Shown here: positions 1,694-20,154 of the stretch, in pieces
How positions within the stretch are numbered: the first letter of the stretch is position 1
Layout: each line of letters starts with the position of its first letter
Virus record (IMG/VR): IMGVR_UViG_2061766007_000169
Length of the DNA stretch: 20,154 nucleotides
Reading direction: 5' to 3' (one strand)
DNA from: an uncultured virus (IMG/VR IMGVR_UViG_2061766007_000169)
Taxonomy: Duplodnaviria; Heunggongvirae; Uroviricota; Caudoviricetes
Program-made: the position numbers and the translations under genes
The notes under the pieces: generated by a model
What the model was told of the DNA's origin: nothing
The model's input: the letters and a program-made list of their open reading frames with translations, nothing else
Database searches by the model: none

Positions 1694-1721
1694 ATTATAT
1701 CAAAAATTTTTTCTTAGTCAA
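1694..1721 (-). promoter_or_regulatory. Sigma-A promoter for the HTH gene
   Basis: Minus strand: TTGACT (1721-1716), 16-nt spacer ending in TG-a, then TATAAT (1699-1694). Confidence 0.7.
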
Positions 1722-1788
1722 CCCCCAAAAAGGACTTGACACATAGTCCTATAAAGGATTATAATGCTTTTTAGAAAGGGGTTGACTA
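1715..1788. repeat. Perfect 11-bp inverted repeat flanking the recombinase promoter
   Basis: TAGTCAACCCC at 1715-1725 and GGGGTTGACTA at 1778-1788. Confidence 0.7.
1736..1765 (+). promoter_or_regulatory. Consensus sigma-A promoter for the recombinase with an overlapping operator-like palindrome
   Basis: TTGACA (1736-1741), 18 nt, TATAAT (1760-1765). TCCT-ATAA-AGGA lies in the spacer, with a related CCCC-AAAA-AGGA just upstream of the -35. Confidence 0.8.
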
Positions 1789-1791
1789 TGA

Positions 1792-2778
1792 ATGTCTATT
1801 GTAGATAAACAGACGTTTGCAACAGAATTGCGTGAGAGATTGAGCGATAAACTGACATTAAAAGACATAGAATCTGTTGTCGGTGAACTCACGGATCAAA
1901 TGGCGTACTATGAAATGGAGCGCAGAGGGGATGATGCATTTCAAAAGGATTTTAACGAAATGCTAAATATCTTCTGCGACACGAAACGGATTGAGGGAAG
2001 ATCAGAGAAAACGCTCGATAGGTATCAATATATTTTAGGCAGATTCCGTGATCGGGATAATACTCCGATTAGGGATATTACTGTTTACAATATTAGGCGG
2101 TTTTTATCCTATGAAAAGAATCGCGGTATATCCGATAGAACACTCACCGGATATAGGGATGTCTTTTCCTCGTTCTTCGGCTGGTTACATAGAGAAGGTC
2201 TAATCCCAAATAATCCCTGTGCAAACTTGATGCCTATTAAGTTTAAGAAAGAAATTAGAAAACCATATTCCAATACAGACCTAGAGAGGATTCGTGAAGC
2301 AACTAGGACGCCAAGAGATAAAGCACTTGTTTCTTTTCTTTTATCTACTGGATGTCGTATAAGCGAAGTGTGTGCACTCAACCGGGATGATGTCGATTTA
2401 TCGAACATGGAGTGTGTTGTTCTTGGCAAGGGTAATAAAGAGAGAACTGTTTATTTATCGGAAATATGTGTGATGCATTTAAAGTATTATCTGCGATTAA
2501 GGAAAGATGATAGTAAGGCTTTGTTTATTGGGAAGGGAACGGAGAGACTGCATCCCGGTGGTGTTAGGAAACGGCTTAACGAAATAGCTGAAGCTGCCGG
2601 GGTTGAGAATGTTCATCCGCATCGTTTCCGGAGAACTCTAGCTACAAATCTTATTAATCACGGAATGGCTATTCAAGAAGTTGCTTCTATCCTCGGTCAT
2701 GATAGGATCGATACTACAATGACTTATGTTTACATAGATAAAATAAATGTGAAAAACTCATATAGGAAATATGTATAG
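1792..2778 (+). CDS. Tyrosine recombinase/integrase (XerC/D-like, N-terminal SAM-like core-binding domain), 328 aa
   Basis: Catalytic motifs TGCRISE (R), GKGNKER (K), HPHRFRR (HxxR), LGH and TTMTY (Y). N-terminal EGRSEKTLDRY. Confidence 0.95.
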   Translation: MSIVDKQTFATELRERLSDKLTLKDIESVVGELTDQMAYYEMERRGDDAFQKDFNEMLNIFCDTKRIEGRSEKTLDRYQYILGRFRDRDNTPIRDITVYNIRRFLSYEKNRGISDRTLTGYRDVFSSFFGWLHREGLIPNNPCANLMPIKFKKEIRKPYSNTDLERIREATRTPRDKALVSFLLSTGCRISEVCALNRDDVDLSNMECVVLGKGNKERTVYLSEICVMHLKYYLRLRKDDSKALFIGKGTERLHPGGVRKRLNEIAEAAGVENVHPHRFRRTLATNLINHGMAIQEVASILGHDRIDTTMTYVYIDKINVKNSYRKYV

Positions 2779-2854: not shown

Positions 2855-4033
2855 ATGATTATAAATCTATGCCAGGGCGGAGAGTCTACGATTACAGTTT
2901 ATGGCCCTGGTACTTCAAGTATCTCGGTAACCGGTGGTGGTGAAACTGTAACAGGGACTATTGCATCCGGTTCGACTAGTGTTTCATTAAAAGTTCATAC
3001 GATATCCACTTATACGGTAACTTGTACTTATAGCAATTCCACAAAATCGGGTACTGTTTCTATAACCACTTTCGGAGAATCAAAATCGATTTCCTTCTCT
3101 TACGCGGTTATTAATGTATATACTCATCCGGGTGCTTCTGTTAGAGCATTTAAGAGCGGCGTAAGCGATCTTACTGGGACCGCGGATAGTAATGGCTATT
3201 GCCTGCTTCCTGTTCCTGCCGGGTCTTTGAACTCCACAGCTTGGACTGTTAGAGCTACGGATGCTAATAGCACAGGCGTGTACGAGGATAAGACTGCTAC
3301 AACGAACTCCCTTACAGCCGACCCGACTGTTTATCCGCTATATCGCATACCGATCATCAAAGTATCTTGGTCAGGCGGTTCTGCTACTTCTTACGGTAAC
3401 GGAATGGATAATGGATATGCGAAGATCTCCGGTACGAACTCATGGAAGATGTGGGTCAAAGCATCCTGTACGGTTACATTCCTTTGGATAAAGACCAAGG
3501 TTCACTTCTGGGGAATCGGCAAAGGCGGCGACGGAAGCGCCGCTTTCTATGATACAGATTCCGCAAGCCCGTATGGCGGCGGCTCCGGCGGTGGCGGTGG
3601 TCAGGTAAAGACCGGGTCTAATGTCACCGTTAGTGTTAATTCCGGATATACTGTAACGATTGGGTCTGCTACTTCTTTTGGCAGCATAATGTCTTGCAAC
3701 GCCGGTGGGAACGGCGGTCGGATGTCAGGTGGTTCATCCGGTGGCAATTCCGGAAACGGAAGTTCCGGTGAATGGGTTAACGACCACAGCTATCCTCCAT
3801 CAAGCGGTGGCGGCGGGTCTGGCGGAGAAGGAGTCTATGCCTTTGGCGATTCTTCCTTTGATGGCGTTCGATATGGTCACGGTGGTGGTGGTGGCGCACA
3901 TTCATCGTCAACTCCGGGGTATCATTCTACCACAGCCGGGTCCGGTGGTGGTGGCGCAGGTCATAGCGGCAATGCCGGCCGCACGAATGGTAATAATGGT
4001 ATCTTCTGTCTGAAACCCGGTGACAATATATAA
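2855..4033 (+). CDS. Tail-fibre-like protein: Ser/Thr-rich beta (Ig-like) N-terminal region plus glycine-rich C-terminal domain, 392 aa
   Basis: RBS GGAGG. C-terminal GKGGDG...GGGSGGGGG...GHGGGGG...GSGGGGAG...GNNGI pattern as in phage glycine-rich tail domains; located next to the lysis genes. Confidence 0.7.
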   Translation: MIINLCQGGESTITVYGPGTSSISVTGGGETVTGTIASGSTSVSLKVHTISTYTVTCTYSNSTKSGTVSITTFGESKSISFSYAVINVYTHPGASVRAFKSGVSDLTGTADSNGYCLLPVPAGSLNSTAWTVRATDANSTGVYEDKTATTNSLTADPTVYPLYRIPIIKVSWSGGSATSYGNGMDNGYAKISGTNSWKMWVKASCTVTFLWIKTKVHFWGIGKGGDGSAAFYDTDSASPYGGGSGGGGGQVKTGSNVTVSVNSGYTVTIGSATSFGSIMSCNAGGNGGRMSGGSSGGNSGNGSSGEWVNDHSYPPSSGGGGSGGEGVYAFGDSSFDGVRYGHGGGGGAHSSSTPGYHSTTAGSGGGGAGHSGNAGRTNGNNGIFCLKPGDNI

Positions 4034-4137
4034 TGGAAATTTCTTCTATGATGATCATGGCCGGTATAGCTTTACATATAGTAGAGCTTGCCGGTCTGAT
4101 AACTTTATACATTATGATGGTATGCAAAGATGAGTGA
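4033..4137 (+). CDS. Small hydrophobic peptide, 34 aa (MEISSMMIMAGIALHIVELAGLITLYIMMVCKDE)
   Basis: ATG overlaps the fibre gene stop (TAATG). One long hydrophobic stretch. Confidence 0.45.
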   Translation: MEISSMMIMAGIALHIVELAGLITLYIMMVCKDE

Positions 4138-5638: not shown

Positions 5639-5857
5639 ATGTATAAGATTACTTGGGATGACATTGTAAGAAAACTCACTTCCAGAAAGTTCTGGCTGGC
5701 TATTGCTTCCTTTGTAACCAATCTTATGGTGTTTAATGGAGCAACCGGAGAAACTGTAGAGAAAGTCACGGCTCTGATTCTAGCCGGTGCTACGGTCATT
5801 GCCTACATTATCGGCGAAGGTCTGGCTGATGCTTCTCCGAATACCACTACAGAATAA
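5639..5857 (+). CDS. Putative holin, two TM helices, 72 aa
   Basis: RKLTSRKFW...AYIIGEGLADA pattern typical of small clostridial phage holins. RBS GGGAGG. Confidence 0.8.
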   Translation: MYKITWDDIVRKLTSRKFWLAIASFVTNLMVFNGATGETVEKVTALILAGATVIAYIIGEGLADASPNTTTE

Positions 5858-5876
5858 TATACCGAATCAGTATTTC

Positions 5877-5910
5877 ACCCCTTTCACCCTAAAAAGTGAA
5901 AGGGGTTATT
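5877..5910 (+). terminator. 11-bp hairpin between the lysis genes and the virion-protein genes (weak terminator or processing site)
   Basis: ACCCCTTTCAC (5877-5887), 8-nt loop, GTGAAAGGGGT (5896-5906). Only a short T tail. Confidence 0.5.
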
Positions 5911-5935
5911 CGCTATATAAGGAGATGATAGCAGA

Positions 5936-7102
5936 ATGGCAACTAGACTAGCCGGGGTCAATACGGCCTCTCAGGCTGTGCCTACTATAAGCATTCAATC
6001 ACCGGTTAAGATTACGAATCCGACGGCTGCTCAGGCGGTAAGTGATCCTGCCATTAACAAGATAGATTCTGTAGCAACGCCGTCGAATGGTGCTGCCGTA
6101 GAAAAGATTCAAGGCAATAGAGTTTCACCGATAAAACCTGCTACTACAACGCAGTCAACAGATAATAGCGGAGCGGGTAAATATGGTGGCTACGGCGGAT
6201 ATGGCGGCGGATCGTCTGAAGCTGAACCACAGAAGAAAGACTGGAGCGGATCGATAGGGTCTGATCCGGATGCGATCAATAGGCTTCTTAATACGGATCA
6301 GTGGGCGCAGAATAACAAGGATCTTATGGCTGGTGCCGGTATTGACGGCGATGTGAATATCGGAAGAATCAACCACATCGATACTGTCCAGGAAGAAGCT
6401 ATGCTGAAGCAGATAACGGATGCTCAGAAAGAGCAGGCTGAGTTGAATGCGCAGCATACTGTAGAGACCGGAGTTAAAGATCTTCAGCGTAACATGGAAG
6501 ATATGCAGCCGGAGTTCCAGACAATGCGTGATCAGGTCGATACTGATGAGCAGAGAGCGCTTGACAATCAGGTTCTCTACTCGGAAGCAAGAGGTGATCG
6601 TGGCGGTATCGGTGCGGCGCAGTACGGAGCCATACAGAATAACGCCGCTACTAACCGACTTACTGTGCAGAAACAGCAGAATAAGTTAGCGAGTGATACC
6701 GCAAGACAGATAGCTGATTTACGTTCTCAGGGTGATTTTGAGAAAGCCAATCAGCTTTTAAGCATTACACAGAATTATTTAAGCCAGTTGATGGATCTGT
6801 TTACCTGGGCGAAGGAGACGAACCTTGGTATTGATGAGTTCAACTCTCAGATCGATCAGTGGGAAGAGAACTATAAGTTAAGTCTGCTTGGTGCAGAGAT
6901 TGATGTGGCGAATGCTACAGGAGCGTTCAGCAACGGAACTCCGACATACGCTGCGTGGATGAAAGCGAGAGACGATCTGGCGGCATCCGGTCAGGCATTA
7001 TTGCAGTCCGGTGTAGCACCCACGGCTGAACAGCTTGAAGCGATGGGTTGGACGAAAGACCAGGCTATAGCGTATCTCAGCAGGTATTTCCCCTATGTTT
7101 AA
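5936..7102 (+). CDS. Hypothetical Gln/Ala-rich coiled-coil protein, likely internal virion/ejection protein, 388 aa
   Basis: RBS AAGGAG. Disordered N-terminus, long Q/A/D/E-rich helical core with an ARGDRGG turn. Directly upstream of the giant gene. Confidence 0.6.
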   Translation: MATRLAGVNTASQAVPTISIQSPVKITNPTAAQAVSDPAINKIDSVATPSNGAAVEKIQGNRVSPIKPATTTQSTDNSGAGKYGGYGGYGGGSSEAEPQKKDWSGSIGSDPDAINRLLNTDQWAQNNKDLMAGAGIDGDVNIGRINHIDTVQEEAMLKQITDAQKEQAELNAQHTVETGVKDLQRNMEDMQPEFQTMRDQVDTDEQRALDNQVLYSEARGDRGGIGAAQYGAIQNNAATNRLTVQKQQNKLASDTARQIADLRSQGDFEKANQLLSITQNYLSQLMDLFTWAKETNLGIDEFNSQIDQWEENYKLSLLGAEIDVANATGAFSNGTPTYAAWMKARDDLAASGQALLQSGVAPTAEQLEAMGWTKDQAIAYLSRYFPYV

Positions 7103-7125
7103 TTCTCTTTGAGGAGATGTAAAGA

Positions 7126-10100
7126 ATGGCGAAATTGTTCGATATTAACAGTATAAGGCAGAATATTTCCGGCAGCACACCGGAACCGGCAAGTGTACCG
7201 ACCCCTGCCCCAGCACCGCCGAAGTTAACTATTCCGAAGAATACACAGGAGCAGCCCCCTGCTCCTACCACACCCTCTGCTCCAAAGTTTACTATTCCTA
7301 AAAATAATGGAATGTCGGTTGACAGATCGAGGGTAAGTATTACTCCGGAAGAACTTACCTCTCGGTTAAAAGGCGCGAATATCCAGACTCCGTTCAAGTC
7401 TCCGGAGCAGAAAGCAGAATCTGCAAAGCCGGTTAATCCGTTCAGGCCATATGTGAATCCGGATACCAAGGCTTCTATGAGAGAGATCCCTGCGTTTCAG
7501 AGGAACACAGCAAGCTGGCTGAATATTGAGGGAACTACCGGAACATCACGTAATCGTCCTAATGGGAAGATGTACGACTGGATTGACTATACCGATGAGA
7601 ATGGTAACCAGGTTTCCGGTATGTGGAGTTGGTGGGATGACAACGGCAAGAGATTCAATGCCGTATCTTCCTTTGCCCAGGATGGTCAGTGGCATGACAG
7701 ATCTTCCATGCGTGGTTATATGCAGGAAGCCGCAAACCTCTACTATGACTATGACGAGATGGCTGACTACATGACCGGAATTATCCGTGACATGGAGAAC
7801 ACTATCAAGACAACGAAGTATGAGACAGAAGCTGCGAAGAAAGCTGACGAAGCTTACCTTGCTTCCATGCGGACTAACCTTGATGGTGCAAAGGCTCTGC
7901 GTGATTCTTCCAGAAAACTCTATGACTATATGTCCACGCAGAACGAATACATGGATGCCTACGATGACTACCATGTGAAAGACGCTTCTGACTCAAAGAA
8001 CTATTCTGAGACATATACCTCCGCTGAGTATGGAGAAATCCCCGGCGGTCGTACACCGGAAGATTGGGATATCGTTATTGAGTCACTGAACGATGAACTC
8101 GACAGAATGCCGGAAGACAGTCCGAATGGCGTTTTAACACGCGCTCGTGAGGAGAAGAAGAGACAGCTTGTAATAGCTGAGTATGCAAGGGGCAAGGCAG
8201 CCGAAGAGAAGGAACAGATAGAGAAAGACAACCTCGGTCTGATGCTTGGTCGTGAGTACTATAATGTGAGTGACGCTAAAGGCTGGCGTAACATCGAGAC
8301 AGATTTGCAGACACAGCTTGACGCTATTCCGGAGACGGAGACAGAAGAGCGGAAGTCTGTTCAGGATCGCCTTGACTATGTGCATGACTTCGTTAAAGCC
8401 GGTGAGTACAAGGACTTCTATGATAAATGGAAAGATGTTTCAGACGATGAACTCATCCGCCGTATCATGGAGCTTGGGGCAGATCCGGAAAAAACCGAAG
8501 CAGATATTAAGCCTGTTGAGACAAACTCCGGGTCAGTTGATGCTCAGATCGAGGAACTTCAGAGCAAGCTTGAAAGACTTGACAGCACTTCACAGGAGTA
8601 TCTTGATACAGCGAAACAGCTTAAGGAACTTCGCGCTACAAGTGAAGCGGATAAAGCGAAAGCTGAAGAAGAGAAAGCAAAGGCGGAAACTCCGGCAGAG
8701 AAGACTCCGGCTGAACTTCGTGCGGAGAAAGAGGAAGCAGAGCGTAAACAGCTTGAACTCGACGCCATCTCCTACATCCGTGACATCCGTCTGATGACCG
8801 GATCGTCTAAAGCATTTGAGGATTATAAGAAAGCTAACCCCGGTGCTACAGCAGCTGATTGGGTTGAGAGCGTAAAGGCAAATGCCGACGAGAAAGAAGC
8901 CTTGCTGGTTAAAGCGGAAGATGCCGCAGCGGATGCCGAAGAGGATATGCACAAGCTTCGCTCCCGTCTTGACGAAGCTATCCGAGTTGCCATGGCAGAG
9001 GGAAGAGAAGTAACTCTTGACGATATTAAGACCGACGATCTTAATCTGCATGGTGTTGAGATCGATATCACGGATCTCGATAAGACGGAGCAGGAACTTG
9101 ACGCTCTTCTGAATAAGGATATAGAAGCCGCACGTATGGCTCTGTCCTACGCAAGACAGCAGAAAGCCTGGGCGGATGCCTATTCCGAGTTCGATATGAC
9201 ACAGCAGCCTGACTATAAGGATAAGGTTAAGGAAGGCTGGAAGATAATGGGGTCTGCGGAAGATCTTAAGAATCTTCTTCAGGATGTACGTGATCTGGTT
9301 ACTTCAATTGGTACTGATACCTATGAAGAAGTAGAACTTACTCCGGAGCAGGAAGAGAGAGCGAGAGAACTTATTCTGTCGATCAATCCGAATGTGACAG
9401 AGAAACAGATGGGGCCGCTCATTGCCGACTATGCGAAGAAGACATATGGTCGTGTTACTAATGATGTAAGGGCGATGAGGCTTCTTACGGACTATGGGTT
9501 TAGCGAGGAAGACGCCCAGTCGATGATTGATAAGCTGAAGGTCGGTGGCAATGACGAGAAGATTCTCGATGCTCTGACGCCGTTTGTCGTTGACGATGGT
9601 AAGATGTCTTTCTCTGAAATGATGGACTCTGTCTGGAAACCAATAGCCGCTACCGGAATTGAGAAAGGCGAGTTCTCTCCCGAACAGCTTAGTAACTACT
9701 ATTATATATTAGCGACAGAGGGTTTGTCTGCTGCAACAGACTACGCTCTTAAAGTAAATAACCAGCTTACTTCTGGCTATCGTGATGAGATGCGGAAGAA
9801 GATGGCGCTTCTTAATGACTACCGGGCAGATCATTCTACCGGATTTGAAAAGGGTCTTCAGTACGTAGCTACTCCTTGGGTAACAGGACTGATGAATCTT
9901 ACCGGAATAGCTGATACGTTTAAGTACATGGGTCAGGTCGGTCATCTTGGAAATACCATACTGTCCGAAGCACCTTCTTTGTCAGAAGCCGCCGATTGGA
10001 TTACACAGGATGTTAACCGCCAGCTTGTAAGAGACGGAGCATCCCAGTTTGTTTTGCTTATTAATAACGCTTACGGAAGTGCCGTACAGAGCTATGAAGC

Positions 10101-13100
10101 TATGACGGCTGGCGGGTATCTCGCAAAGTTCCTTGGCATTAACGAAAGTGTCGTTCTGAACCTCGGTGGTAAATACGGAAAGAGCGCTCACGAACTTATA
10201 ACCACCGCTTTTACTGATGCGGCATTCTTTGGTTCTGCCGCTGCAAGCCGATACAGAGAACTCACAGATCGTGGAGTTGCTCCGGAAAAGGCAATGAATT
10301 CTGCTATATCGGCCGGCCTGTGCGAAGCTATTTTCGAACATCTGTCCATTGAGACCTTGTACCACGCTAAAGATGTTGCGGACTTTACCGGAATAGGTGA
10401 TGTTGTTCTGTCAACGATTATCGGCTCAGGCATTGAGGGTTCTGAAGAAGTATGTACAGAACTGGCTAACTTCATCTGCGACAAGATTATACTTGGCATA
10501 GAGGGCGATTTCTTCCAGTCTATCGAAGCCTATAAAGATATGGGTATGTCCGAGGACGAAGCGTGGGGGAAAGCAGTTAAAGACTTTGCCAGCCAAGTCG
10601 GTGAAGCCGGTCTTTCCGGTTTCATATCCGGCGGTATGTCCATTAGTCTGCGTACTACCGGTGCATACGCACGGGAGATGTTGAGCGTAAAGGACTACAA
10701 TAGGGCGCGTGGTGACACGTATCTGAAGCATCAGTATGCCGATGGTAAGAACGGCGGACAGGCTCTTGGCGAGTTTCTTTCCTCTTATAAGTTCTTTGAT
10801 GAAATAGACAGCGGGAACTATACCGAGACACAGCACGAGGTATTCGACACAATTAAGAATCTCGCTGATAAAGCTTCAAGAGGAATCGCTTCTGCTGAAG
10901 AGGTTGGCCGTCTAGTTTCCCTCGCAGACAGTATTGATCAGAAGATCATAGATGACTTTATCCAGGCTAACAAAGACTACGCTTGGCAGACAGATCCGGT
11001 TAGAGCATCTCGGGTTGCAAAGAATGATCTGGACGCTTTGCTTGGTGTGGATAAGGCTAACGCTTATCTCCAGGCTGTCGGTAATAATCCGGACGCATTC
11101 GTTGTAGATGATTTCTACAAAGGAATGATCGACGCCGGAACTACCATGACTAAGGATGGCATTAATACTACTGAATCGTTCTTACAGCAGGTGCTTACCG
11201 GAAACGGACAGTTAAGTGCGGAAGCTATTGCAGATGAAGTAAAGAACCTTACAGATCCGAAAGCACAGCTTTACATCCTTGAGTTCTTAAGAAGTCATCA
11301 GCAACAGGGCGCTGCTCAGGCAGCTGCACAGGCAGAGGATGTCAATCAGCCGTTTGACTTCGTTATAGATGAGAGTCTTACCCAAGAGGATATTCAGTCA
11401 AAAGAAGGATCGGAAAACCTCGCAGAGGTTCTTACCAGAACCCTGACAGCTACATGGGATCGTGCGGTAAAAGCCGCTTCGGATTTCATGGTAATGAATC
11501 AGTCCTTTGCCAAACTGCAGGAGATGGCTCAGGAGACTTTGAAGCAGGATGCGAGGACGGAAGGGACAGCAGCTTTTGCGGAGTCAGAATCAGATGAGAC
11601 CACACCTGCGTTGTCAGATTTTAGGGATGACGGAGACAGCGTAACATTCCGTGGTAAGAAGTTTAATCGTAAAGAGTATGTGGCTTCTGTTATGGAAGGT
11701 AAAGATCCGTTCTCCGGTGAGACGGTAGAAAATACTACTGAGGAGTGGGCTAACAAATCCTTCGATGCTCTGCTTGAGAGGGCATCTGACGAGAGTTTCG
11801 GCAAGAGCGATGAGATGTCTGCCGAGATGGTAAACTTCGATCTGGCAAAGCATACGCCCAAGGAAAAGGCAACTGCGACAACAGCTAGTGCTACGGCTGA
11901 AACGAATGCGGATAAAGCTGCTGGCGGTGAGTCGAAGAAGACTACTTCAAAGACCAAGCCGAAGAATATTCCGGCTAAGAAGAACACTCCTAAAGGCAGG
12001 AACAAAGCGGAGTTGAAAGCGGATAAGGCTGCTGGTGGAGAGTCGAAGAAGACTACTCCAAAGAAGACAGAGCCGAAGAATATTCCGGCTAAGAAGAACC
12101 TTCCTAAAGGAAAGAACAAGGCGGAAGAAAAAGCTGATACCGCCGCCGGAAGTACGGAAGAGACTACAACTCCGGTAGAAACCGCACCGAAGACTGACGA
12201 AGCTACAGAACTCACCGGAGAGGAACTCGCCCTTGCACAGAAAGAAGATCTGGACCGTATTGAGCGTGAGTTCAGAGACGAGATGGGCGAGACTTCTGAA
12301 GAAGTTCCTACCGTTGAAGAACTCAGAGATCAGGAGATCGAGTCGGAAACAGACGAGGGGGAAACCTCTTTCGGAACTACAGAGGGAAGCACGACCAGGA
12401 CATGGGATGATACATTCCAGCTTGACGGCGAGAGTATTACGAGAGCGGAGTTTGTTCAGTCATATATGTCCGGTACAGATCCTCTTACCGGAGAAGACAC
12501 ATATCCCCTGACTCAGGCACAGGCGAATGCGGCATTCGACAGAACCTATGCCTATGCTATGCAGCAGGGCGGATCTATCGATGGTGACGGAAGTTACTCC
12601 ACAGACGCAAATGTTAAGACGGGTGTTGTATCTGATGTCCGTCAGCTTGCTCTTGAGAACGAACTCAATGCTCTGGAATCCATTCTTAAGAATAAGAAAG
12701 AAGCCGGAGACACTATCGGAAGAGGTCTGCTTCAGAAGATTGACTATGCCAGAAAGAGAATTCAGGACGCACTTGGCAGACAGATCACGAGACTTGGCTC
12801 TGATGTAGAGTCCAGGCGGAAAGAACTTAATGACCAGCTTAAGGCTATCGACAGCCGTATGAACCAGATCCGACAGTACATTAAGAACAAAGCTGTTGGG
12901 TCTCTTATTTTCAATAAGGAACTCGACGGTCTCAAAGCCAAGAGACGGGATGTTAAGGCAAAGCTGACCAGCCTGAATAACGCTGTAGCGGCTTACAACA
13001 CCGCAGTAGACAAACTTGAAGACTGGCGTAACAGAATGTACGCTACTGACTATTACACAATTCTCGGAGGGTTAACGTATGACGGGAGATCGAGTACAGA

Positions 13101-15290
13101 TAGAAACACCGAGCGGACAGGTGATGTGGGTGACGCCGGAAGCAGCAGAACGGATGTCAACACTTCCGCCGACAGAACAGGCACAACTGAGGGAGCAGGC
13201 GTCAAAACGGAAAGACGCACTGCTAGAAGCGTTGAACAAGTACTATCCGAAGCAGGATTAAAGCTTAAAGGTACTGTTGCCCTCGACACCGCAACGGTTA
13301 CAGCGAGGGATATATACAATGACAAGTCGCTTCCAAGAAGTGTAAAGACCGCAATACTCCATGCTTTGCGTAACGGCGTAAGCCGGGTGCTTATTACAGA
13401 CGGAACACTTCAGAACGAGTCCGGTCAGAACATCGGTGGTTATACACACGCTACAAAAGAGAACGGCATTGACCGTTCTATTTTTATAATAAACAAGCAG
13501 TCGAAGATACCGATGCAGCAGAACATTCTGCACGAGTATGTTCACCATATGCTGGGCAAACTCGCTCCTCAGAACAGAGCGTCATTCCTTCGCAACGCTA
13601 TGAACGTGCTGTTCCGCGGTCGGCAGGATCTGTTTGAAGCGGTATATAATACCTACCTTGACGATTATGTAAAAGCCTATAACCTGACGCTTGATGCTGA
13701 CGGCAAACTCTCTCCGGAGCAGGCTCTTGATATCTACGAAGAAATCGTTGCGGATATGCATGGCATGATCCCAAGGTTTACTGCCGCCCAGGATGAGAAG
13801 CTTAATGCGGCTATGGCCCCATTCCTGGTTGATATGCGTGGCAGACTTCTTCGCTACATGGAACTCTCCGGTCTTGAGGATTACTCAAGAGAGAAATGGA
13901 TAGGCGAGGATCATCAGGGATTGACTCACTATGATGTCGAGGACTTTGTCGGAACACGTTCTGCTATGGGCGGAGTTGTAGAGGGTAAAGCTGTTTCGCC
14001 GCAGGTAGCTACAGAAACCGGAATGCTGGTGGATGCGATTGAAGTGCCGAATGGCGATACCGGAACACCTGAAATCATGAACGTGTCCGGTGATAGGAAT
14101 TTGAGCGGTAAGGCATCAATCGCGCCGGAGTATGAAGCCACTCCGAAGCAGAGCATTAAGGTCAACAACAGTTCTGTAACGAAGAAGACTCTTACGGATA
14201 AGAAAGGTAATCTTGTTAATCGGACTGTCCGTGAAGTACGTGATGAAGCTTTCCATAAGAACAGAGAGTTTATGGCGGAGCAGGGAGAAGCCGGAATAAG
14301 GAAGTTCAATTCCTTCCTTGATAAGGTAGCTGACTGGCTTACCAATACGGCTGCTCAGAAATTCCGTTATCTGAACTTCGAAGACATTAACAATGCCACT
14401 CTTAAAGTTGATCCGGTAAGCAACCAGTTAATCCTTACTTCTATGGTTAAGAATGGTGACTATGCCGTCAACATAGACTTCGGTACTATATGCGAACGCA
14501 GACAGGCGCTCCAGACAATCATGAACGAATTGCTTGAGGGTGCAAGTTATGACGAGAACGGTATTAAAACCGTTCAGCTTAATGCGAAGTCCATCCACAA
14601 AATCAATGAAGCACTCCGTGATGCCGGAATTAATACCCAGTGTCTGATCTGCTTCGTGGAGACAAAACGCTACAATCAGACAAAGCAGTTTGCGGAATTC
14701 ACAGAACTGTGGAACAACGAAGTAAAGAAGTACACGGATTCCAATGAGTTCTTTAAATTCAGAAAAGGCGCTAAAGAATTAACGGAAGAGCATATCGAAG
14801 CAAGACGGAAAGCTCTTGACGGATACAGCGGATACGGCAAGGGCGTTAACACCGAGAAAGCTGTAGCTGATATGGTTAAGCGTCTGGCTAAATACTCTCC
14901 GGAGGATCTGAAGCTGCTTGATATAAACGATATCGCTTCTTCTAAAGGTCGCACAAGCATCAGTCAGTCCTTCCCGGATCTCGATGGCCTTATTAAGAAG
15001 AAGGGCGGGAGTGCCGCTCCGAAGCCGGTATATGGATACATTCCGTATAACGGCGAGATCGAGGGTATGTACAAGCAGAAGAGGAAAGACGAAAAAGAAG
15101 AACAGGCCCATCAGAGACTTAGAGATTACATGAAGTCTATCGCCGGAGTTCGTTCGCAGTCCTTCTCCGACTTCATTATTACCCATGTGTTCGACCATCT
15201 CCAGAAGACCGGCGGTATGGCGGCTATGGGTTTTCCGGGGCATACCTACACCAAGGTTCTTGCACGAGCAGAACTGTTTGGGTTAACAGG
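7126..15290 (+). CDS. Giant polyvalent virion-type protein, part 1 (coiled coils, Gly/Ala-rich membrane-like segment, Lys-rich repeats, HExxH zincin, GP88-like region); continues across the gap
   Basis: RBS GAGGAG; the frame is unbroken up to the N run. HEYVHH at 13531-13548 with EEIVAD at 13738-13755; CxxC at 14641-14652. The ORF-track end at 15411 is an artefact of the gap. Confidence 0.85.
11908..12150 (+). repeat. In-frame tandem repeat of 111/114 nt (about 2.2 copies) encoding Lys/Pro-rich units
   Basis: ADKAAGGESKKTT...PKNIPAKKN.PKG.NKAE starts at 11908 and 12019; a partial third copy (ADTAAG) starts at 12133. Confidence 0.9.
13079..13261 (+). CDS. Nested out-of-frame 60-aa gene inside the giant CDS
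   Basis: GGAGGG at 13066-13071, 7 nt before the ATG. Upstream TTGAAG-17-TACGCT (13016-13044). The host frame becomes a G/R/T/D-rich linker over this span. Confidence 0.6.
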   Translation: MTGDRVQIETPSGQVMWVTPEAAERMSTLPPTEQAQLREQASKRKDALLEALNKYYPKQD

Positions 15291-15300
15291 NNNNNNNNNN
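15291..15300. other. Scaffold gap with duplicated flanks
   Basis: 15241-15290 is identical to 15332-15381 (50 bp, offset 91). Confidence 0.95.
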
Positions 15301-15307
15301 AGGTGCT

Positions 15308-18300
15308 ATGGCAGCGAAAGGCTTTGTTGCTCATACCTACACCAAGGTTCTTGCACGAGCAGAACTGTTTGGGTTAACAGGCGAGAAGATCAATATGTCC
15401 TTACTGTTTGATATCGATCCGAACGTGAACTCCTGGTATGCAGGACTCAGCGAGGAGACACAGGATATCGACTTTAGCGAGGGCAGCGGAAGACTTGGTG
15501 TAGAGAACGCAAGGAATCGTCCGTACAACTTCTCCGACTATCAGGCAAGGATGGAAGAGAAAACGGAATGGGTGCAGTCCTTCCCCTATAAAGACGCTGT
15601 CAGAATTCAGAACACTCCTGTATACAGCAAGAACACCGGAACGATTGGCGTAAGCCATTCCTACTGGCATACGATGTGGATGCTGGCTGACCCGGAGATT
15701 CGTCAGGTGATTGGCTACCACTCCTCAAGTTACCCAGGAGAGATCAAGAATCTTACGCATCTTAATCTGTCTGCTGACTATACCGATGTGCAGAACAATG
15801 TGAAGATAGTTGGTATAGCAAGACCTAATTACGAGATTCCGGATGGAACTCCGAGCTATGCTACAGAACCGGGCAACGCCAAGAAGCTGTCCGGAGATGC
15901 CAAGAGGATTGCTCTTGCAGAGGATGAAGTACGGAAGATCTTCGGTGAATATGCGAATGGTGCTACGGTTGATATCAGCAAAATGCTGAAGAATGCTGTG
16001 GCTGATAAGAATAACAGAGGTAAGAGCAAAGGACAGATTGCTTCTGAAGTAATGCAGAACTTCCTCAATACTCTTAATGACAACGGCTTAACCCTGATCA
16101 CTACAAAAGCCGAAGCCGGCCACGGCTCCTTTAAACTCTATGATGATGTAGAGCAGACGCAGAATCCTTATGAGACTATGGACAACTATATTGCCTATAA
16201 TCTCACAAAAGGCAATCTCCCTGCGTTCTACGAGTTCTCTACCGATCCTAACTACTACAAGCTGATCTTTGACTTCAATATGTTCGACCGTCTGTCCTAC
16301 AATCCGGAAACAGGACTCTATGAAACCTACGCTCCACAGGAGGCTGTTAAGGTTCTGGACGAGAATGGTGAACTGTTGTTCCCCAATAAGGGCGATATCA
16401 TTGATATGCTTGACCACTATGCCACACAGTACGATATCGAGCAACATAAGGTGTACGATTTCATTAATGCGGAAAGCACAATGGACTACGTAAGACAGGT
16501 TACCGGAGTAAAGGCGAGTGTTGACTCTGATGGAATCGAGTTGTCTAGACAGCAACAGAACTACTTCGCAGACTCTAAGGTAAGAGACTCTCACGGAAGG
16601 CTTATTCCTATGTATCATGGCGGATCGACTCTCGGCTATACAGTAATAGACTTCTCTAAAACAGACGATGGCATATCCTACTTCATGACCGATAGTCCTT
16701 ATGTAGCTGCGTCCTATAGCGGGTCTGACGAAGTTCGTTCTCTGATGAGGGATAAAGAGGAGAATAGCCAGTCTGTCTATGATGGATACGAACTCCTTCA
16801 AAAGCATCCGATCAGTATGACAGACGAGGAACTTGCCAGGGGTTACGAACTAGCATCTAAAGTGCTGGATGGGAAAGATATTACCGGAGAAGTTTCGGTA
16901 GTGCCGTTTGAGAAAGCACTGAATGATATTGACACGGATTTACGTAAACGCTTTAAGGCCGCTACCGATTATTACAACGACGATATAGACCATGAGCAAC
17001 TTAAAAACGCAATCTACGCTGGTTATTATGAAGAAATAGAGAAGAATCTTGCCGACATTGGCGACATCATAAACAGCGGTCGGGAACTCTCTAGCAAGGA
17101 TCTAGCTACCATACGAAGTAAATTAAGGCTTGCCCTCGGTGCGATGTTCAACGCAAGGACGGAAGATAAGTTAATATATCTCCAGCTATCTCAATTGTAC
17201 GATCTATCCGACGATCTGTATCACACCGCCGGGGATCTGTTAAACATTAAGGAAGATGACTCAAAGAGAAGCGTTTTTATAACTCCGGATGGAGATATGG
17301 TTACCTACACGCAGTTTGAACTTACTGCTGGTGGTCGTATTTTACAGGCGAATTCTCGTCTTGATGTTGAGATGCTAGACAAAACTTCCGGTGTTTTAAA
17401 GGTCTATGCCAACCTTACTAATCCTTATGTGATAGATGCAGAGGGCGAATCGTGGAGACATATCAGCGCACCGGAAGAAGTCGTAAATTATCTTAAGTCT
17501 ATAAATGAACCGCAGCTTCACTTCTTCTCAGGAAGAGGTGACCTTCTGAAGACCAGAGGTGTAGCGAGATACGCAAAAGACCACGGATATGACGGCGTTA
17601 TTTTCGAAAACCTTGTGGATATGGGCGGCGATCCGGATTTTGATGAAGATACTGAATCAACAGTTGTGATCGCTTTCGAACAGAACCAGGTTAAAGACGC
17701 TGACAATCTGAATCCGACCAATGATGTCGATATGCGGTACAGCATCGACAATCTTCCCGACGGAACACAGTACGTGTGGATCGACAGCAACATCGTTGCT
17801 GAAGCCAAGAAGAATAATCAGAACGTACCGAATTACGTGCAGAGTTATATCGAGCAGGTATTTGAGAAGACAGGCGTTCCGATTGCTACTACTCCGGATG
17901 GACACATGGTCTATGCAGAGGAAGCAAAAAGAACTCCCAAATCCAGATACGGACTTGGGAAAGAATTCACTCACTCTACAGCGAACAAGCGGCTTGGCAA
18001 GAACTTAGCCGAGAAAAAACTCAGATCTGCTACCAACCTTGCAGAACTGGTCGCTATAGCACAGAACGCCACAACAGAATCTACACGGCACACAGACAAT
18101 AAGGACGCTGTCAGTACGGTACGCTACACATCTACCTTTGCTTTCCCTGTGTGGAATCCGGGCAGAACAAAGCTGGAGAACGTAAGGGCGTATGACTGCG
18201 AACTCATTATGAACCTCGGTTCAGACGGCAAGTACTATCTGTATGATGTTCCGGTAATAAAAGAAAACACCGCATCAGCGATTGCTATTCTTAACGAAAA

Positions 18301-19920
18301 GCAAGGGGCTGCGACGAACGCAGCAGGCCAATACGGTGTTTCTGCGGATAGTATAGCAAACACCGAGCAGAAAGTCAATACGCAAAATTCTGCACAGGGC
18401 AGAGCGAGTGTCGAGACAGCAGCGGCTGGCGGCTTCTCTGCATGGGTAAATAGTCTGAAGACAACTCCAACCGCAGAAGATTTCAGAAGCTACTTTGAAT
18501 CTCATCCATCCGATATTAACTTCCTGCGTGAGTATGCTGTTAATAGCGTCCGTGACAAGCGGACCGGCAACAAGAGTAAGACAGCATTTAAGAAATTCGT
18601 AAAGGCTCTTGATCCCAAAGCGATGGCAACTCTGTCTAGCTTTGGTGTATGGAAGAATTACGTTGAGGGCTCTGCTGTTAATCTTCCGTGGTATATTTCA
18701 GACCACAATGACACATGGTACAAGAGTTGTGCAAGGGAATTTAACGATATCCTGGATGAAGCTATTAAGTCCTACCTTAATAAAGACTCCGCAACAGAGG
18801 ACACGGCTCTTACGGATCAGGAGATCGAGAAGCTGAGACCAGATCTTGTTAATGCCATCAGTGCTATTCAGGACAGAGACAGCAATGGGAAGCTTCTTGA
18901 TGAGAAGCTGTTCGATAAGACTCTTGAGTCTCTTCAGTGGCTTTATAAAAATAGTCCGCAGCTGAACTATTTGACCAGACTTGCAAACGCTACATCTGAT
19001 GCTCAGAAGAAAACAATACGTACAGAACTTGAAAAGATGCTGTCCGGTATTGATGACAGGCAGGCTCTGCGGTATATGAGTGCGTACAGTAAGTATGCTA
19101 CTCCGGCTTTTGTCGGGAGAGACTATAAGCAAATCCAGAAAGAGAAGTCTGCACAGAGACTGTTCGCCAATACGATTGAAGCCAGACGGGATGCTATAAA
19201 CAAAGAGGCCGGTCTGAGTACAAATGTAGGTCTTGAAGTGCGCGAGTACAGCATCAATGAAATGAGAGATCTGTTTGATCAGCTTAACACAGAGCCGGAT
19301 CTTACCGCTCTCGCAGATAAAGTATTCCCAGTTGTCGAGAAACTCGGTCTTACTATCCGTGGCGCACAGGCGAAAAATTTCGGTTCCGGTGCGATTGGTC
19401 AGGCTTATGGATCAGTTGTAGAATACAACACCGCTAAGTTTAACGGCCTTGGGGATACAGATCAGTATAAGGCAACCGCCATTCTGCATGAACTTATTCA
19501 TGGCGCTACATCCTACGCTCTGTATGCGGATGAATATCCGGGATGGGGTATTAAGCTTTCTCAAAATATGAGAGACGCAATCAGAGAAATCCGCGCTGTA
19601 CATAGAGAAGTGAGATACGATGAGAAGCTTTCCAATATGTATGGTGCTACGGATGAGCATGAGATGCTGGCAGAACTTTCCAATCCTAAGTTCAGAGACG
19701 CCTTGGAAAAGAAATCTCTGTGGGATAAGATCGTTGATGCTTTCAAGAAATTCTTCGGCATTGAAACGAAGAACGCTCTTGATGCGGCTTCAGCCGGACT
19801 TGATTATCTCCTTGACAACTTCGACTACGATGCCTACCTGAGATATGCGGATGTCCAGAACACTGCACATGGCGAGTCCTATCGTCTGACGGACAGAGCG
19901 AGAGACGCTGTCCATGAAGC
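15308..19920 (+). CDS. Giant polyvalent protein, part 2 (rest of the GP88-like region, ART-PolyVal-like domain, LPD3/BECR-like domain, second HExxH zincin)
   Basis: Begins by repeating HTYTKVLARAELFGLT of part 1. FADSKVRD...MYHG...YFMT...VYANLTNP...GYDGVI...FEQNQVK spans ~16510-17743; DGKYYLYDV lies near 18225-18250; HELIH at 19487-19501 with HEMLAE at 19658. Confidence 0.85.
18255..18343 (-). ncRNA. Putative ~90-nt antisense small RNA forming a three-way junction
   Basis: 16-bp closing stem (18342-18327 with 18279-18264) containing four G-U pairs that form only on the minus strand. Two internal hairpins and a U-rich 3' tail. Starts about 6 nt after a -10 box. Confidence 0.7.
18350..18378 (-). 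promoter_or_regulatory. Internal antisense sigma-A promoter
   Basis: Minus strand: TTGACT (18378-18373), 17 nt ending in TG-c, then TATACT (18355-18350). Confidence 0.75.
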
Positions 19921-19930
19921 NNNNNNNNNN
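19921..19930. other. Scaffold gap with duplicated flanks
   Basis: 19801-19920 is repeated as 19931-20050 (offset 130). The last 50 bp are identical; the rest differs at a few positions. Confidence 0.95.
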
Positions 19931-19931
19931 C

Positions 19932-20154
19932 GACTATCTCCTTGACAACTTTGACTACGATGCCTACTTGAGATATGCTGATGTCCAGAACACCGCACAC
20001 GGCGAGTCCTATCGTCTGACGGACAGAGCGAGAGACGCTGTCCATGAAGCGCGTTATCCCAATATGGTAAAACTGTGGGATGGCTCGTGGATTGACAGAG
20101 ACTACGCTACCTGGAATGAAGAAGACCAGATATGGGAAGAGAAAGAACAGAAGA
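19932..20154 (+). CDS. Giant polyvalent protein, part 3; open at the window end
   Basis: DYLLDNFDYDAYLRY...HEARYPNMVKLWDGSWIDRDYATWNEEDQIWEEKEQK, with no stop before base 20154. Confidence 0.8.

Follow-up and report, generated by a model that had tools for sequence, protein, structure and literature searches.

A candidate small RNA gene lies antisense within the LPD3-like tail codons of a giant phage polyvalent protein

We found strong support for an independent small RNA (sRNA) gene, predicted from the sequence to consist of a promoter, a structured RNA, and a terminator, that lies antisense within the open reading frame (ORF) of a giant polyvalent protein of an uncultured tailed phage. The window, that is, the whole stretch of DNA analyzed, has 20,154 nucleotides (IMG/VR record IMGVR_UViG_2061766007_000169), and the features discussed below are collected in Table 1. 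Nucleotide-level selection acts on the promoter, helices, and U tract of this element, the minus strand is preferred, and the element is tightly linked to an LPD3-like domain. We infer from these patterns that the RNA is made, as well as its exact ends and its function; its start and end were placed by promoter geometry and the U tract. A sequence-only reading of the window had proposed a promoter-driven structured antisense RNA gene at this position, and the promoter, helices, U tract, and G-U bias now lend comparative support to that proposal.

Table 1. Features of the candidate sRNA gene and of its host gene in the window
Feature	Position	Strand	Basis or remark
Giant polyvalent-protein gene	7126..20154	+	Apparently split only by two N10 scaffold joins; runs off the window
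ART-PolyVal	aa 693-804 of P0001		Domain match in the giant polyvalent-protein gene
LPD3-like alpha+beta domain of the giant protein, ending ..DGKYYLYDVPVIKE	17741..18259	+	phmmer, AF2 model, sub-cut-off Pfam LPD3
Tail/linker codons (IKENTASAIAIL...SIANTEQKVN) overlapping the whole RNA gene	18257..18382	+	
-35 box TTGACT	18373..18378	-	Reverse complement of K-V-N codons
Extended -10 box TGcTATACT	18350..18358	-	TG 18358-18357, TATACT 18355-18350; reverse complement of S-I codons
Predicted ~87-nt sRNA	18257..18343	-	Placed from ~7 nt past the -10 box to where the U tract ends
Closing stem, 5' arm, antisense to G-Q-Y-G-V-S codons	18327..18342	-	Folding; covariation
Hairpin 1, GC-rich 6-bp stem, 5-nt loop	18308..18324	-	Folding
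Hairpin 2	18282..18304	-	Folding; covariation
Closing stem, 3' arm, antisense to E-N-T-A-S-A codons	18264..18279	-	Folding; covariation
U-rich tail, terminator-like	18255..18267	-	Reverse complement of I-K-E-N codons

The minus-strand promoter described by the sequence-only reading is present, with a 17-nt spacer between its -35 and -10 boxes both in the window and in homologues. It scores 10/12 matches plus the TG and is the best of 19 promoter-like sites in 7000-20154, a region without overall enrichment of such sites (19 versus 15.8 ± 4.5 in shuffles). Over 46 distinct homologous upstream sequences, the -35 box (T41 T42 G39 A34 C35 A29) and the -10 box (T41 A41 T36 A37 C30 T41) were conserved, that is, a sigma-70/sigma-A promoter lies at the right distance for an independent sRNA gene. 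Synonymous codons were frozen at the -35 box (V=GTC in 33 of 34) and at the -10 box (S=AGT in 28 of 28 and I=ATA in 35 of 36), these sequence counts being phylogenetically nonindependent, so that binomial P values for codon freezing are overstated. Besides, the -35 box survives in three reading frames, the other two of which encode K-S-Q and L-S-R, and the -10 box is kept in another reading frame too (Q-Y-T). Because synonymous codons are frozen and the -35 box is kept in three frames, the peptide pattern SI-x6-VN is explained as the footprint of the reverse promoter, as had been suggested.

Next to this promoter, the minus strand (18345-18250) folds with a minimum free energy (MFE) of -38.4 kcal/mol (z -5.68; 0 of 200 shuffles as good), and the plus strand of the same region folds more weakly (-28.2 kcal/mol; z -2.43; 5 of 200 shuffles as good). 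Its GC-corrected stability (residual Z -3.84) ranked second of 4964 96-nt segments on both strands, nearly tied with that of 17897-17992(-) (-3.86). The latter minus-strand structure (z -5.32) was rejected as part of the element, since it was not conserved in 29 homologous loci. The anticipated three-way junction was recovered with its 16-bp closing stem (18342-18327 paired with 18279-18264), two hairpins, and U tail, and the four G-U pairs claimed for the closing stem can be read off the predicted structure. Behind the stem, the T's of the UUUUCUUUUAU tract were nearly invariant in homologues, giving the stem-then-U-tract order of an sRNA gene, and the tail codons were frozen in A-rich form (I=ATA in 42 of 44, K=AAA in 42 of 43, and E=GAA in 34 of 34, against backgrounds of 0.26, 0.51, and 0.41, respectively). 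In the AF2 model of the domain, residues 197-222 had a pLDDT below 50, which agrees with the low-complexity linker originally described, whereas the first ~19 residues of the overlapped segment (177-195) are predicted to be helical with good confidence and do not fit that description.

The element was found at the equivalent place in 46 homologous loci in addition to the window. Relatives were obtained by alignment-based locus scans, and exact 8-residue pattern scans with the single protein gave none. A covariance model, R1, matched the window at 18255-18349(-) (51.9 bits; E 6.8e-9) and gave 47 strong matches (E 2e-19 to 9e-6), all antisense to an ORF and one per locus; whole records or genomes contained exactly one match each (5 of 5). 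Minus-strand z values were -2.5 or lower in all 44 homologous regions and -4 or lower in 34 of them, and in 29 of 29 loci the element was the sole stability peak within -800 to +500 nt. The same architecture was seen in 39 of 39 distinct sequences, with hairpin 1 present in every one of them when folded singly. Chance is thus excluded as the origin of the element, because the same architecture occupies the homologous place in every relative examined. A promoter-plus-arm pattern had 30 matches in viral contigs, including 12 R1 matches, all in known contigs; the other 18 had no R1 match and were taken as chance.

Furthermore, the sequence-only reading had suggested checking whether homologues conserve the reverse promoter and a covarying stem. 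The promoter is conserved in the 46 sequences mentioned above, and the covariation score in an alignment made from sequence only was 0.394, versus 0.219 in shuffles (0 of 500 reached 0.394) and only 0.16-0.21 with slid partners. The model-fitted alignment, which leans towards the structure to which it was fitted, gave 0.437 versus 0.209, and the controls spanned 0.13-0.22 overall. Double changes occurred in 30-31 of 33 pairs, as compensatory changes in an sRNA gene should. The proportion of paired cells was 87.7% in the outer helix of the closing stem (double changes in 12 of 13 pairs), 82.9% in its inner part (5 of 5), and 79.2% in hairpin 2 (7 of 8). G-U occupied 173 pair cells versus 55 for A-C and was commoner in 41 of 44 sequences. 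A G-U pair would be an A-C mismatch on the plus strand, and this excess therefore indicates the minus strand, so that the strand argument drawn earlier from the closing stem of the window is borne out by the homologues.

The host gene encodes a protein of more than 4000 amino acids that is probably virion-borne and injected, and its carriers, in which an integrase and a repressor are present, are temperate Clostridia phages. DNA BLAST of 17700-18700 against phage and plasmid collections returned no match, an exact 45-mer from the window had 0 matches in the metagenome contigs searched, and a tRNA/tmRNA scan found none. X20, the only RNA run with sequence from part of the window, gave a single contig at 17924-18162, outside the sRNA; such contigs carry neither strand nor ends and are no evidence for the absence of a transcript. 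The domain upstream of the element had 200 phmmer relatives at E<=1e-3 (111 at E<=1e-10), and its AF2 model had a pLDDT of 76.9. The Pfam LPD3 profile (PF18798) matched relatives only, and weakly (best scores 18.5, 14.7, and 13.5 bits; E 0.002-0.08), and the domain of the window itself had no match to it. Because the scores stay under the gathering cut-off of 27 bits, we use the label "LPD3-like" only. In an ESM Atlas neighbor cluster, LPD3 was found in 47% of members (score 0.89), and no PBECR Pfam match was obtained over the domain. Searches with two models gave no clear fold and did not establish the BECR (Barnase-EndoU-ColicinE5/D-RelE) nuclease fold suggested by the sequence-only reading: the best VIA-align matches were weak (Z 4.4 and 4.2, to CdiA-CT 6cp9_A), as were those to BrnT, RelE, and ParE (Z 3.3-4.0), and the top Foldseek match was the NTF2-like 3hx8 (E 3.6e-4) with a low TM score (0.26-0.38). 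LPD3 has been described as a domain of phage polyvalent proteins (Iyer et al. 2017, PMC5512222); the passages of that paper searched give no function for it, and the words "linker," "noncoding," and "RNA gene" are absent from its main text.

A search that started from the element placed 26 of 27 elements directly behind the LPD3-like domain. Besides, 52 distinct stand-alone genes carried a shorter form of the element, and their product is a 183-aa soluble alpha+beta protein. In 46 of the 52 sequences, the non-coding DNA past the stop codon held a promoter with at least 10/12 matches, leading into a stem and U7 that overlap the last ~12 codons. The earlier claim that the module carries its own RNA partner holds to the extent of this association. 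For the chromosomal stand-alone versions, a phage context is not obvious. A tblastn search with the stand-alone protein gave no match against plasmids and one uncultured phage record, MT835967.1, which was not scored by R1 and in which the short form (TTGACT-17-TATTAT) was recognized by eye. Cultured carriers of the short form include Butyrivibrio hungatei DSM 14810, Pseudobutyrivibrio ruminis DSM 9787, and Acetatifactor aquisgranensis DSM 110981.

Since the RNA would be perfectly complementary to the mRNA that it overlaps, at the 3' end in stand-alone genes or at an internal site in giant genes, cis-antisense silencing is its most likely role, and on balance we favor, by somewhat better than even chances, a cis-antisense silencer inside the LPD3-like tail codons of the giant injected phage protein. 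The near-consensus housekeeping-sigma promoter (TTGACA-17-TATACT) would start transcription ~7 nt upstream of the closing stem, the ~87-nt RNA would fold into the three-way junction, and an intrinsic terminator would be formed by the closing stem together with the UUUUCUUUU tract behind it. Two features speak against such a terminator: it would be multibranched, which is uncommon, and the closing stem is rich in A-U and G-U pairs at its base. The RNA may then act like the antitoxin of a type I toxin-antitoxin system, pairing through its hairpin loops; pairing would trigger duplex cleavage, and/or the RNA would interfere with oncoming RNA polymerase. The module mRNA would thereby be kept off, for example in lysogens, unless late transcription outruns silencing. 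It is solely the overlap that suggests action in cis. A wider proposal, which we regard as possible and hold tentatively, is that a portable cassette, recombinable as a unit, is made up of the LPD3-like domain plus the antisense RNA, and that the RNA gene doubles as an interdomain linker of injected polyvalent proteins; the RNA of a resident prophage may silence, or immunize against, an effector mRNA, its own or that of a superinfecting relative, as a type-I-like system for a large enzymatic effector.

Among known systems, bsrG/SR4 and txpA/RatA are convergent type I toxin-antitoxin loci on Bacillus subtilis prophages. In par of pAD1 (fst/RNA II), convergent promoters share a terminator (PMC7472228), and SR6, of 100 nt, is described as overlapping yonT at its 3' end in prophage SPbeta (PMC5848175). 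These Firmicutes loci share with our element a short RNA with its own promoter, antisense into the 3' end of a mobile-element protein gene, and a stem-loop and U tract common to, or facing, the mRNA, although they have no sequence or Rfam relationship to it, and here the promoter, RNA, and terminator all lie within the ORF. A type I toxin is usually a small hydrophobic peptide (PMC6563280), whereas the overlapped product here is a soluble protein of 183 aa, or an LPD3-like domain of ~180 aa internal to a protein of >4000 aa, which is evidence against a type-I-like reading; complementarity of the RNA to the mRNA is given by construction, as the predicted RNA gene overlaps the ORF tail. RalR/RalA is reported as a prophage nuclease-type toxin controlled by an RNA antitoxin, with RalA encoded in trans and having 16 nt of complementarity (PMC4041452). 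Unlike that pair, the LPD3-like domain has only a putative nuclease activity, and no homology of our element to RalA was detected. Another type I pair with an enzymatic toxin is SymE/SymR. Lambda OOP, P22 sar, and P1 c4 are likewise small cis-antisense RNAs of temperate phages with a promoter and a terminator, but they act on lysis-lysogeny regulators, whereas the present element is housed in a giant gene of structural/effector type and accompanies a single protein domain.

Alternatively, the RNA might act through protein binding, whether as an antitoxin resembling those of type III or as a cofactor or cargo for the LPD3-like domain or the virion, its antisense position then reflecting compact linkage. 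Strict linkage to one domain in both architectures would suit this, as would the weak fold matches to RelE, ParE, BrnT, and CdiA-CT toxins (Z 3.2-4.4) and a covarying three-way junction with near-invariant unpaired A's between hairpin 2 and the closing stem, which is more shape conservation than plain antisense needs. We nevertheless consider it unlikely: the hairpin sequences and loops vary freely among homologues, and the overlap with the ORF persists in stand-alone genes too, although these offered an intergenic position. The type III antitoxin ToxI consists of tandem repeats that lie on the same strand as the toxin gene, upstream of it, and that the toxin processes. ToxIN has in common with our element a structured RNA linked to a putative RNase-like protein, yet the type III analogy drawn by the sequence-only reading fits poorly, as each locus has one three-way-junction unit without tandem repeats, on the opposite strand and on the 3' side of the domain.

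It is also improbable, to a similar degree, that a prophage expresses the RNA to act in trans, either conferring immunity by pairing with the giant-gene mRNA tail of superinfecting relatives or regulating, or acting as a decoy for, host targets. That a late structural gene of temperate phages contains a strong housekeeping-type promoter would be in keeping with such action, together with a closing-stem sequence similar in many relatives and a YUNR word in the hairpin-2 loops of 23 of 39 sequences (11.1 expected from shuffled loops); however, the conserved arm is buried in a stem of 16-18 bp, and the chromosomal stand-alone versions lack an obvious phage context. Far less probable is a DNA-level element, a portable linker or recombination module that shuffles polyvalent-protein domains and whose RNA is incidental. 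In contigs from other studies, the match is confined to 18262-18392/18396 (0-5 differences), the flanks being unlike the window on both sides, and the downstream modules of close relatives diverge directly after the -35 box, but this leaves unexplained the bias for G-U over A-C, the canonical -35 and -10 boxes at 17-nt spacing, the A-rich codon freezing at the U tract, and the helix-keeping compensatory changes. A promoter for single-stranded DNA or a single-strand origin was rejected, since the hexamers are not part of the stems and the element is carried by tailed phages rather than by conjugative elements. We give the least credence to a structure serving the plus-strand mRNA as an interdomain ribosome pause or processing site, with the reverse promoter look-alike as a by-product: plus-strand folds do beat shuffles in most homologues (z -1.1 to -7.5), with 69% of loci below a residual Z of -2, but the MFE of the minus strand is lower in 42 of 44 homologous regions, G-U pairs become A-C mismatches on the plus strand, and selection on the promoter and U tract follows the minus orientation and extends to the untranslated DNA after the stop codons of stand-alone genes.

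No prior description of the element was found in the open-access literature searched. Rfam 15 gave 0 matches in the window at the gathering score, only a chance lncRNA match on the other strand in the element region at E<=10, and only a chance snoRNA match in 20 homologous loci at E<=1. The ~100 distinct variants examined define a candidate RNA family, carried by Clostridia phages and mobile elements from gut and rumen and without an Rfam match, and, as far as the literature was searched, this would be the first link of a regulatory RNA to phage-injected polyvalent effector proteins. Since cultured carriers of the short form exist, the prediction can be checked by standard RNA mapping. The element indicates that a whole sRNA gene can be concealed within an ORF and dictate a conserved "protein motif," and domain annotators could mistake such a footprint for a functional peptide. 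Cis-antisense silencing by the predicted RNA would, furthermore, provide a testable model of how potentially harmful giant genes are silenced.

The minus-strand promoter named in the sequence-only reading, TTGACT-17-TGcTATACT, was found at 18378-18350 and was the best among 19 promoter-like sites in 7000-20154, an interval in which such sites as a class were not enriched (19, versus 15.8 +/- 4.5 in shuffled sequences). Downstream of it, the minus strand of 18345-18250 folded as had been proposed, into a three-way junction with four predicted G-U pairs in its closing stem. The MFE was -38.4 kcal/mol (z = -5.68), which was matched by 0 of 200 shuffled sequences; the plus strand of the same region gave -28.2 kcal/mol (z = -2.43). 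The RNA region ranked second for GC-corrected stability among 4964 96-nt windows on both strands.

Features of the minus-strand element located within the giant gene
Feature	Position	Strand	Basis
-35 box, TTGACT	18378-18373	minus	read from sequence
Extended -10, TG-c-TATACT	18358-18350	minus	hexamer 17 nt behind -35 box
Closing stem, 16 bp	18342-18327 with 18279-18264	minus	fold of 18345-18250
Hairpin 1	18324-18308	minus	fold of 18345-18250
Hairpin 2	18304-18282	minus	fold of 18345-18250
U-rich tail	3' of closing stem	minus	fold of 18345-18250

A phmmer search with ORF residues 812-1041 against 1.84 billion representatives retrieved 200 proteins at E<=1e-3, of which 111 reached E<=1e-10. Most alignments extended through the tail ("linker") behind the LPD3-like domain, indicating that the tail is conserved as protein, with the family consensus ..SDGKKYLYDIVNIKENTA..DL....AA..AA.Q.GVS..SI......VN; behind VN, the sequences diverged into different modules. 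Alignment-based scans yielded 27 IMG/VR loci and 80 loci in GTDB genomes (the best 80 of 149 relatives), mostly in Oscillospiraceae and Lachnospiraceae MAGs and isolates. Two architectures were observed: giant ORFs with an internal domain, which read on through the tail (class a), and stand-alone genes of ~183 aa, which stop a few codons past IKKET (class b).

We folded 120 nt at the homologous position in 43 class-a loci and the window. Minus-strand z values ranged from -2.5 to -8.5 in all 44 regions (<= -4 in 34), and the MFE was lower on the minus than on the plus strand in 42 of them. The 39 distinct sequences, folded one by one, all formed a closing stem around exactly two hairpins, and the hairpin sequences were unrelated from homolog to homolog. 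In 29 loci, over an interval of -800 to +500 nt, the element position was the sole stability peak, with residual Z below -2 on the minus strand in 29/29 loci and on the plus strand in 69%. Besides, a U-turn-like YUNR word occurred in the hairpin-2 loops of 23 of the 39 homologs in the RNA alignment (A3), versus 11.1 expected from shuffled loops, and in 4 hairpin-1 loops versus 5.2 expected, i.e., no excess; these counts ignore relatedness among the homologs.

A MAFFT-only alignment of the 39 distinct RNAs gave a three-helix covariation score of 0.394, versus 0.219 for shuffles (0/500 reached 0.394) and 0.16-0.21 for slid-partner controls, with changes on both sides in 30 of 33 pairs. A covariance model found 47 strong matches among the window and 99 loci, one per locus and all antisense to the ORF; the window itself scored 51.9 bits (E = 6.8e-9), and 42 of the 43 folded class-a loci were recovered, the exception being locus L026. 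The model-fitted alignment, which is biased towards the fitted structure, scored 0.437 versus 0.209, and in it, owing to a variable register, hairpin 1 was badly aligned, with 59.5% of its cells paired. Paired cells held 173 G-U/U-G versus 55 A-C/C-A combinations, and G-U outnumbered A-C in 41 of 44 sequences. This indicates that the helices are built for the minus strand, as had been argued from the G-U pairs of the window. The check suggested in the sequence-only reading, for a reverse promoter and a covarying stem in homologs, found both conserved (46 upstream sequences and 39 RNAs, respectively).

The composition across 46 distinct upstream sequences (spacer, 17 nt) was T41 T42 G39 A34 C35 A29 at -35 and T41 A41 T36 A37 C30 T41 at -10; the window has the canonical extended -10 TG, which only a minority of homologs share. 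Both hexamers are reverse complements of V-N/K and S-I codons, at which the synonymous choice was frozen. Besides, the -35 box was translated in another frame as K-S-Q in L039, L021, and L031 and as L-S-R in L044, and the -10 box as Q-Y-T in L039. Thus, selection acts on the DNA words and not on the peptide, and "SI-x6-VN" is, as first suspected, the footprint of a reverse promoter. The terminator tract UUUUCUUUUAU was nearly invariant across homologs and is the reverse complement of I-K-E/K-N codons, frozen to A-rich forms.

Codon use beneath the promoter and terminator (the counts come from related sequences, and the binomial P values overstate their significance)
Codon	Observed	Background
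V = GTC (promoter)	33/34	0.21
I = ATA (promoter)	35/36	0.255
S = AGT (promoter)	28/28	0.134
I = ATA (terminator tract)	42/44	0.26
K = AAA (terminator tract)	42/43	0.51
E = GAA (terminator tract)	34/34	0.41

In class b, 46 of 52 distinct sequences had, past the stop codon, a promoter matching at least 10 of 12 positions, mostly TTGACA-17-TATTAT, with 65-80 nt from the end of the -10 box to the end of a U7 tract. The predicted RNA consists of a closing stem with a single inner hairpin and overlaps the last ~12 codons; variation was small, with double changes in only 4 of 13 predicted pairs. This layout is the same as that of convergent type I toxin-antitoxin loci. Cultured strains with this short form include Butyrivibrio hungatei DSM 14810 (L097), Pseudobutyrivibrio ruminis DSM 9787 (L088), Acetatifactor aquisgranensis DSM 110981 (L058), and Lachnospiraceae bacterium A4 (L086). 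Intermediate forms were also observed: in MT835967.1 (L183, about 1099-1290), the ORF spans the whole short RNA with its stop codon within the -10 box, and in L040 and L042 it ends within the promoter spacer (SIP*).

Metagenome contigs scanned element-first with a sequence pattern yielded 37 matches. The covariance model recognized 27 of them, and 26 of these 27 lay directly behind ..DGKKYLYD... The remaining one (L180:690-830; 27.9 bits), with a perfect TTGACA-17-TATACT, lay behind a divergent domain ending ..VYNVGAIKK, suggesting that the range of LPD3-like domains accompanied by the RNA may be wider; this element precedes an ART-like module. Exactly one model match per record was found in 5/5 whole records or genomes. 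Near-identical cassettes of domain and RNA (L002-L023 and L147-L182) were followed by differing modules (KYSLEP.., KFSREP.., QFSVS.., and PQFSLKA..), which places a module boundary right behind the -35 box. DNA contigs of two other runs matched the window only over 18262-18392/18396 (0-5 differences) and those of a third only over 18350-18396, all being unlike the window on both flanks; the cassette is therefore also present in another protein context. A similar ~12-nt word on both cassette flanks in these contigs might reflect a recurring junction motif or a duplication produced by insertion.

Other structures were also detected in the window. A second very stable one, at 17897-17992 on the minus strand (z = -5.32; terminator-like hairpin at 17961-17934), was not conserved across the 29 homologous loci scanned and was dropped as part of the element; the one contig from the single RNA run (a metatranscriptome, coded X20; ~94% identical) spans 17924-18162, outside the predicted sRNA. 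Strong intergenic hairpins at 5833-5928 (minus), 4025-4120 (plus), and 1697-1808 (both strands) are probably ordinary terminators between integrase, lysozyme-like, and structural genes.

As for the domain, Pfam LPD3 gave only sub-threshold matches, in relatives, and the ESM Atlas neighbors were "large polyvalent protein-associated domain" clusters, one with LPD3 in 47% of members. The model of the stand-alone protein was confident (pLDDT 92), and neither VIA-align nor Foldseek found a clear structural relative of it: the best VIA-align Z was 4.2, with rows for CdiA-CT, BrnT, RelE, and ParE and also VirB8/NTF2-like folds, and the top Foldseek match was an NTF2-like protein (E = 3.6e-4; TM 0.26-0.38). 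In the window domain model, tail residues 177-195 are predicted to be helical and 197-222 disordered.

The window derives from bovine gut metagenome data and includes an integrase, a tail-lysozyme-like gene, and the giant gene. A related genome, G001, is a temperate tailed phage (42.8 kb; CheckV 99%) with terminase, portal, internal virion protein (phrog_511), tail protein, a 2371-aa giant gene, and endolysin on one strand and integrase and repressor on the other. N10 scaffold joins at 15291-15300 and 19921-19930 have duplicated flanks (unmerged overlaps); the apparent ORF split 7126-15411/15308-19945 and the stop near 19945 were produced by the assembly, and a single frame of >4300 codons, extending past the window end, makes up the giant gene. 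Zincin-like peptidase modules are common in polyvalent proteins, and a HELIH (HExxH) word at 19400-19600 (aa ~1390-1400 of window protein P0001) suggests such a module downstream, although Pfam at E<=0.01 reported none around it. The giant protein carries ART-PolyVal; on the reasoning of Iyer et al. 2017 (PMC5512222), its packaging and injection are probable.

Promoter, folded product, and terminator are each under minus-orientation, nucleotide-level selection, in translated and untranslated DNA alike, and a selected minus-strand sRNA gene very probably exists. Because the RNA gene invariably overlaps the mRNA of its own module and stand-alone genes show the convergent layout, our best guess, held at somewhat better than even confidence for the statement as a whole, is that the RNA would act as a cis-antisense, type-I-like silencer. 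We rank below this silencer the readings of an RNA-protein partnership, of a role in trans or in immunity, of an element working at the DNA level, and of a plus-strand function. The element matched no Rfam family, no tRNA or tmRNA was found, and no prior description turned up in the open-access literature searched; the main text of the polyvalent-protein paper (Iyer et al. 2017, PMC5512222) mentions neither linkers nor RNA genes. Cis-antisense sRNAs are already known as a kind, and what appears to be new is a whole RNA gene set into polyvalent phage proteins as their linker, together with the "peptide motif" that results from it.
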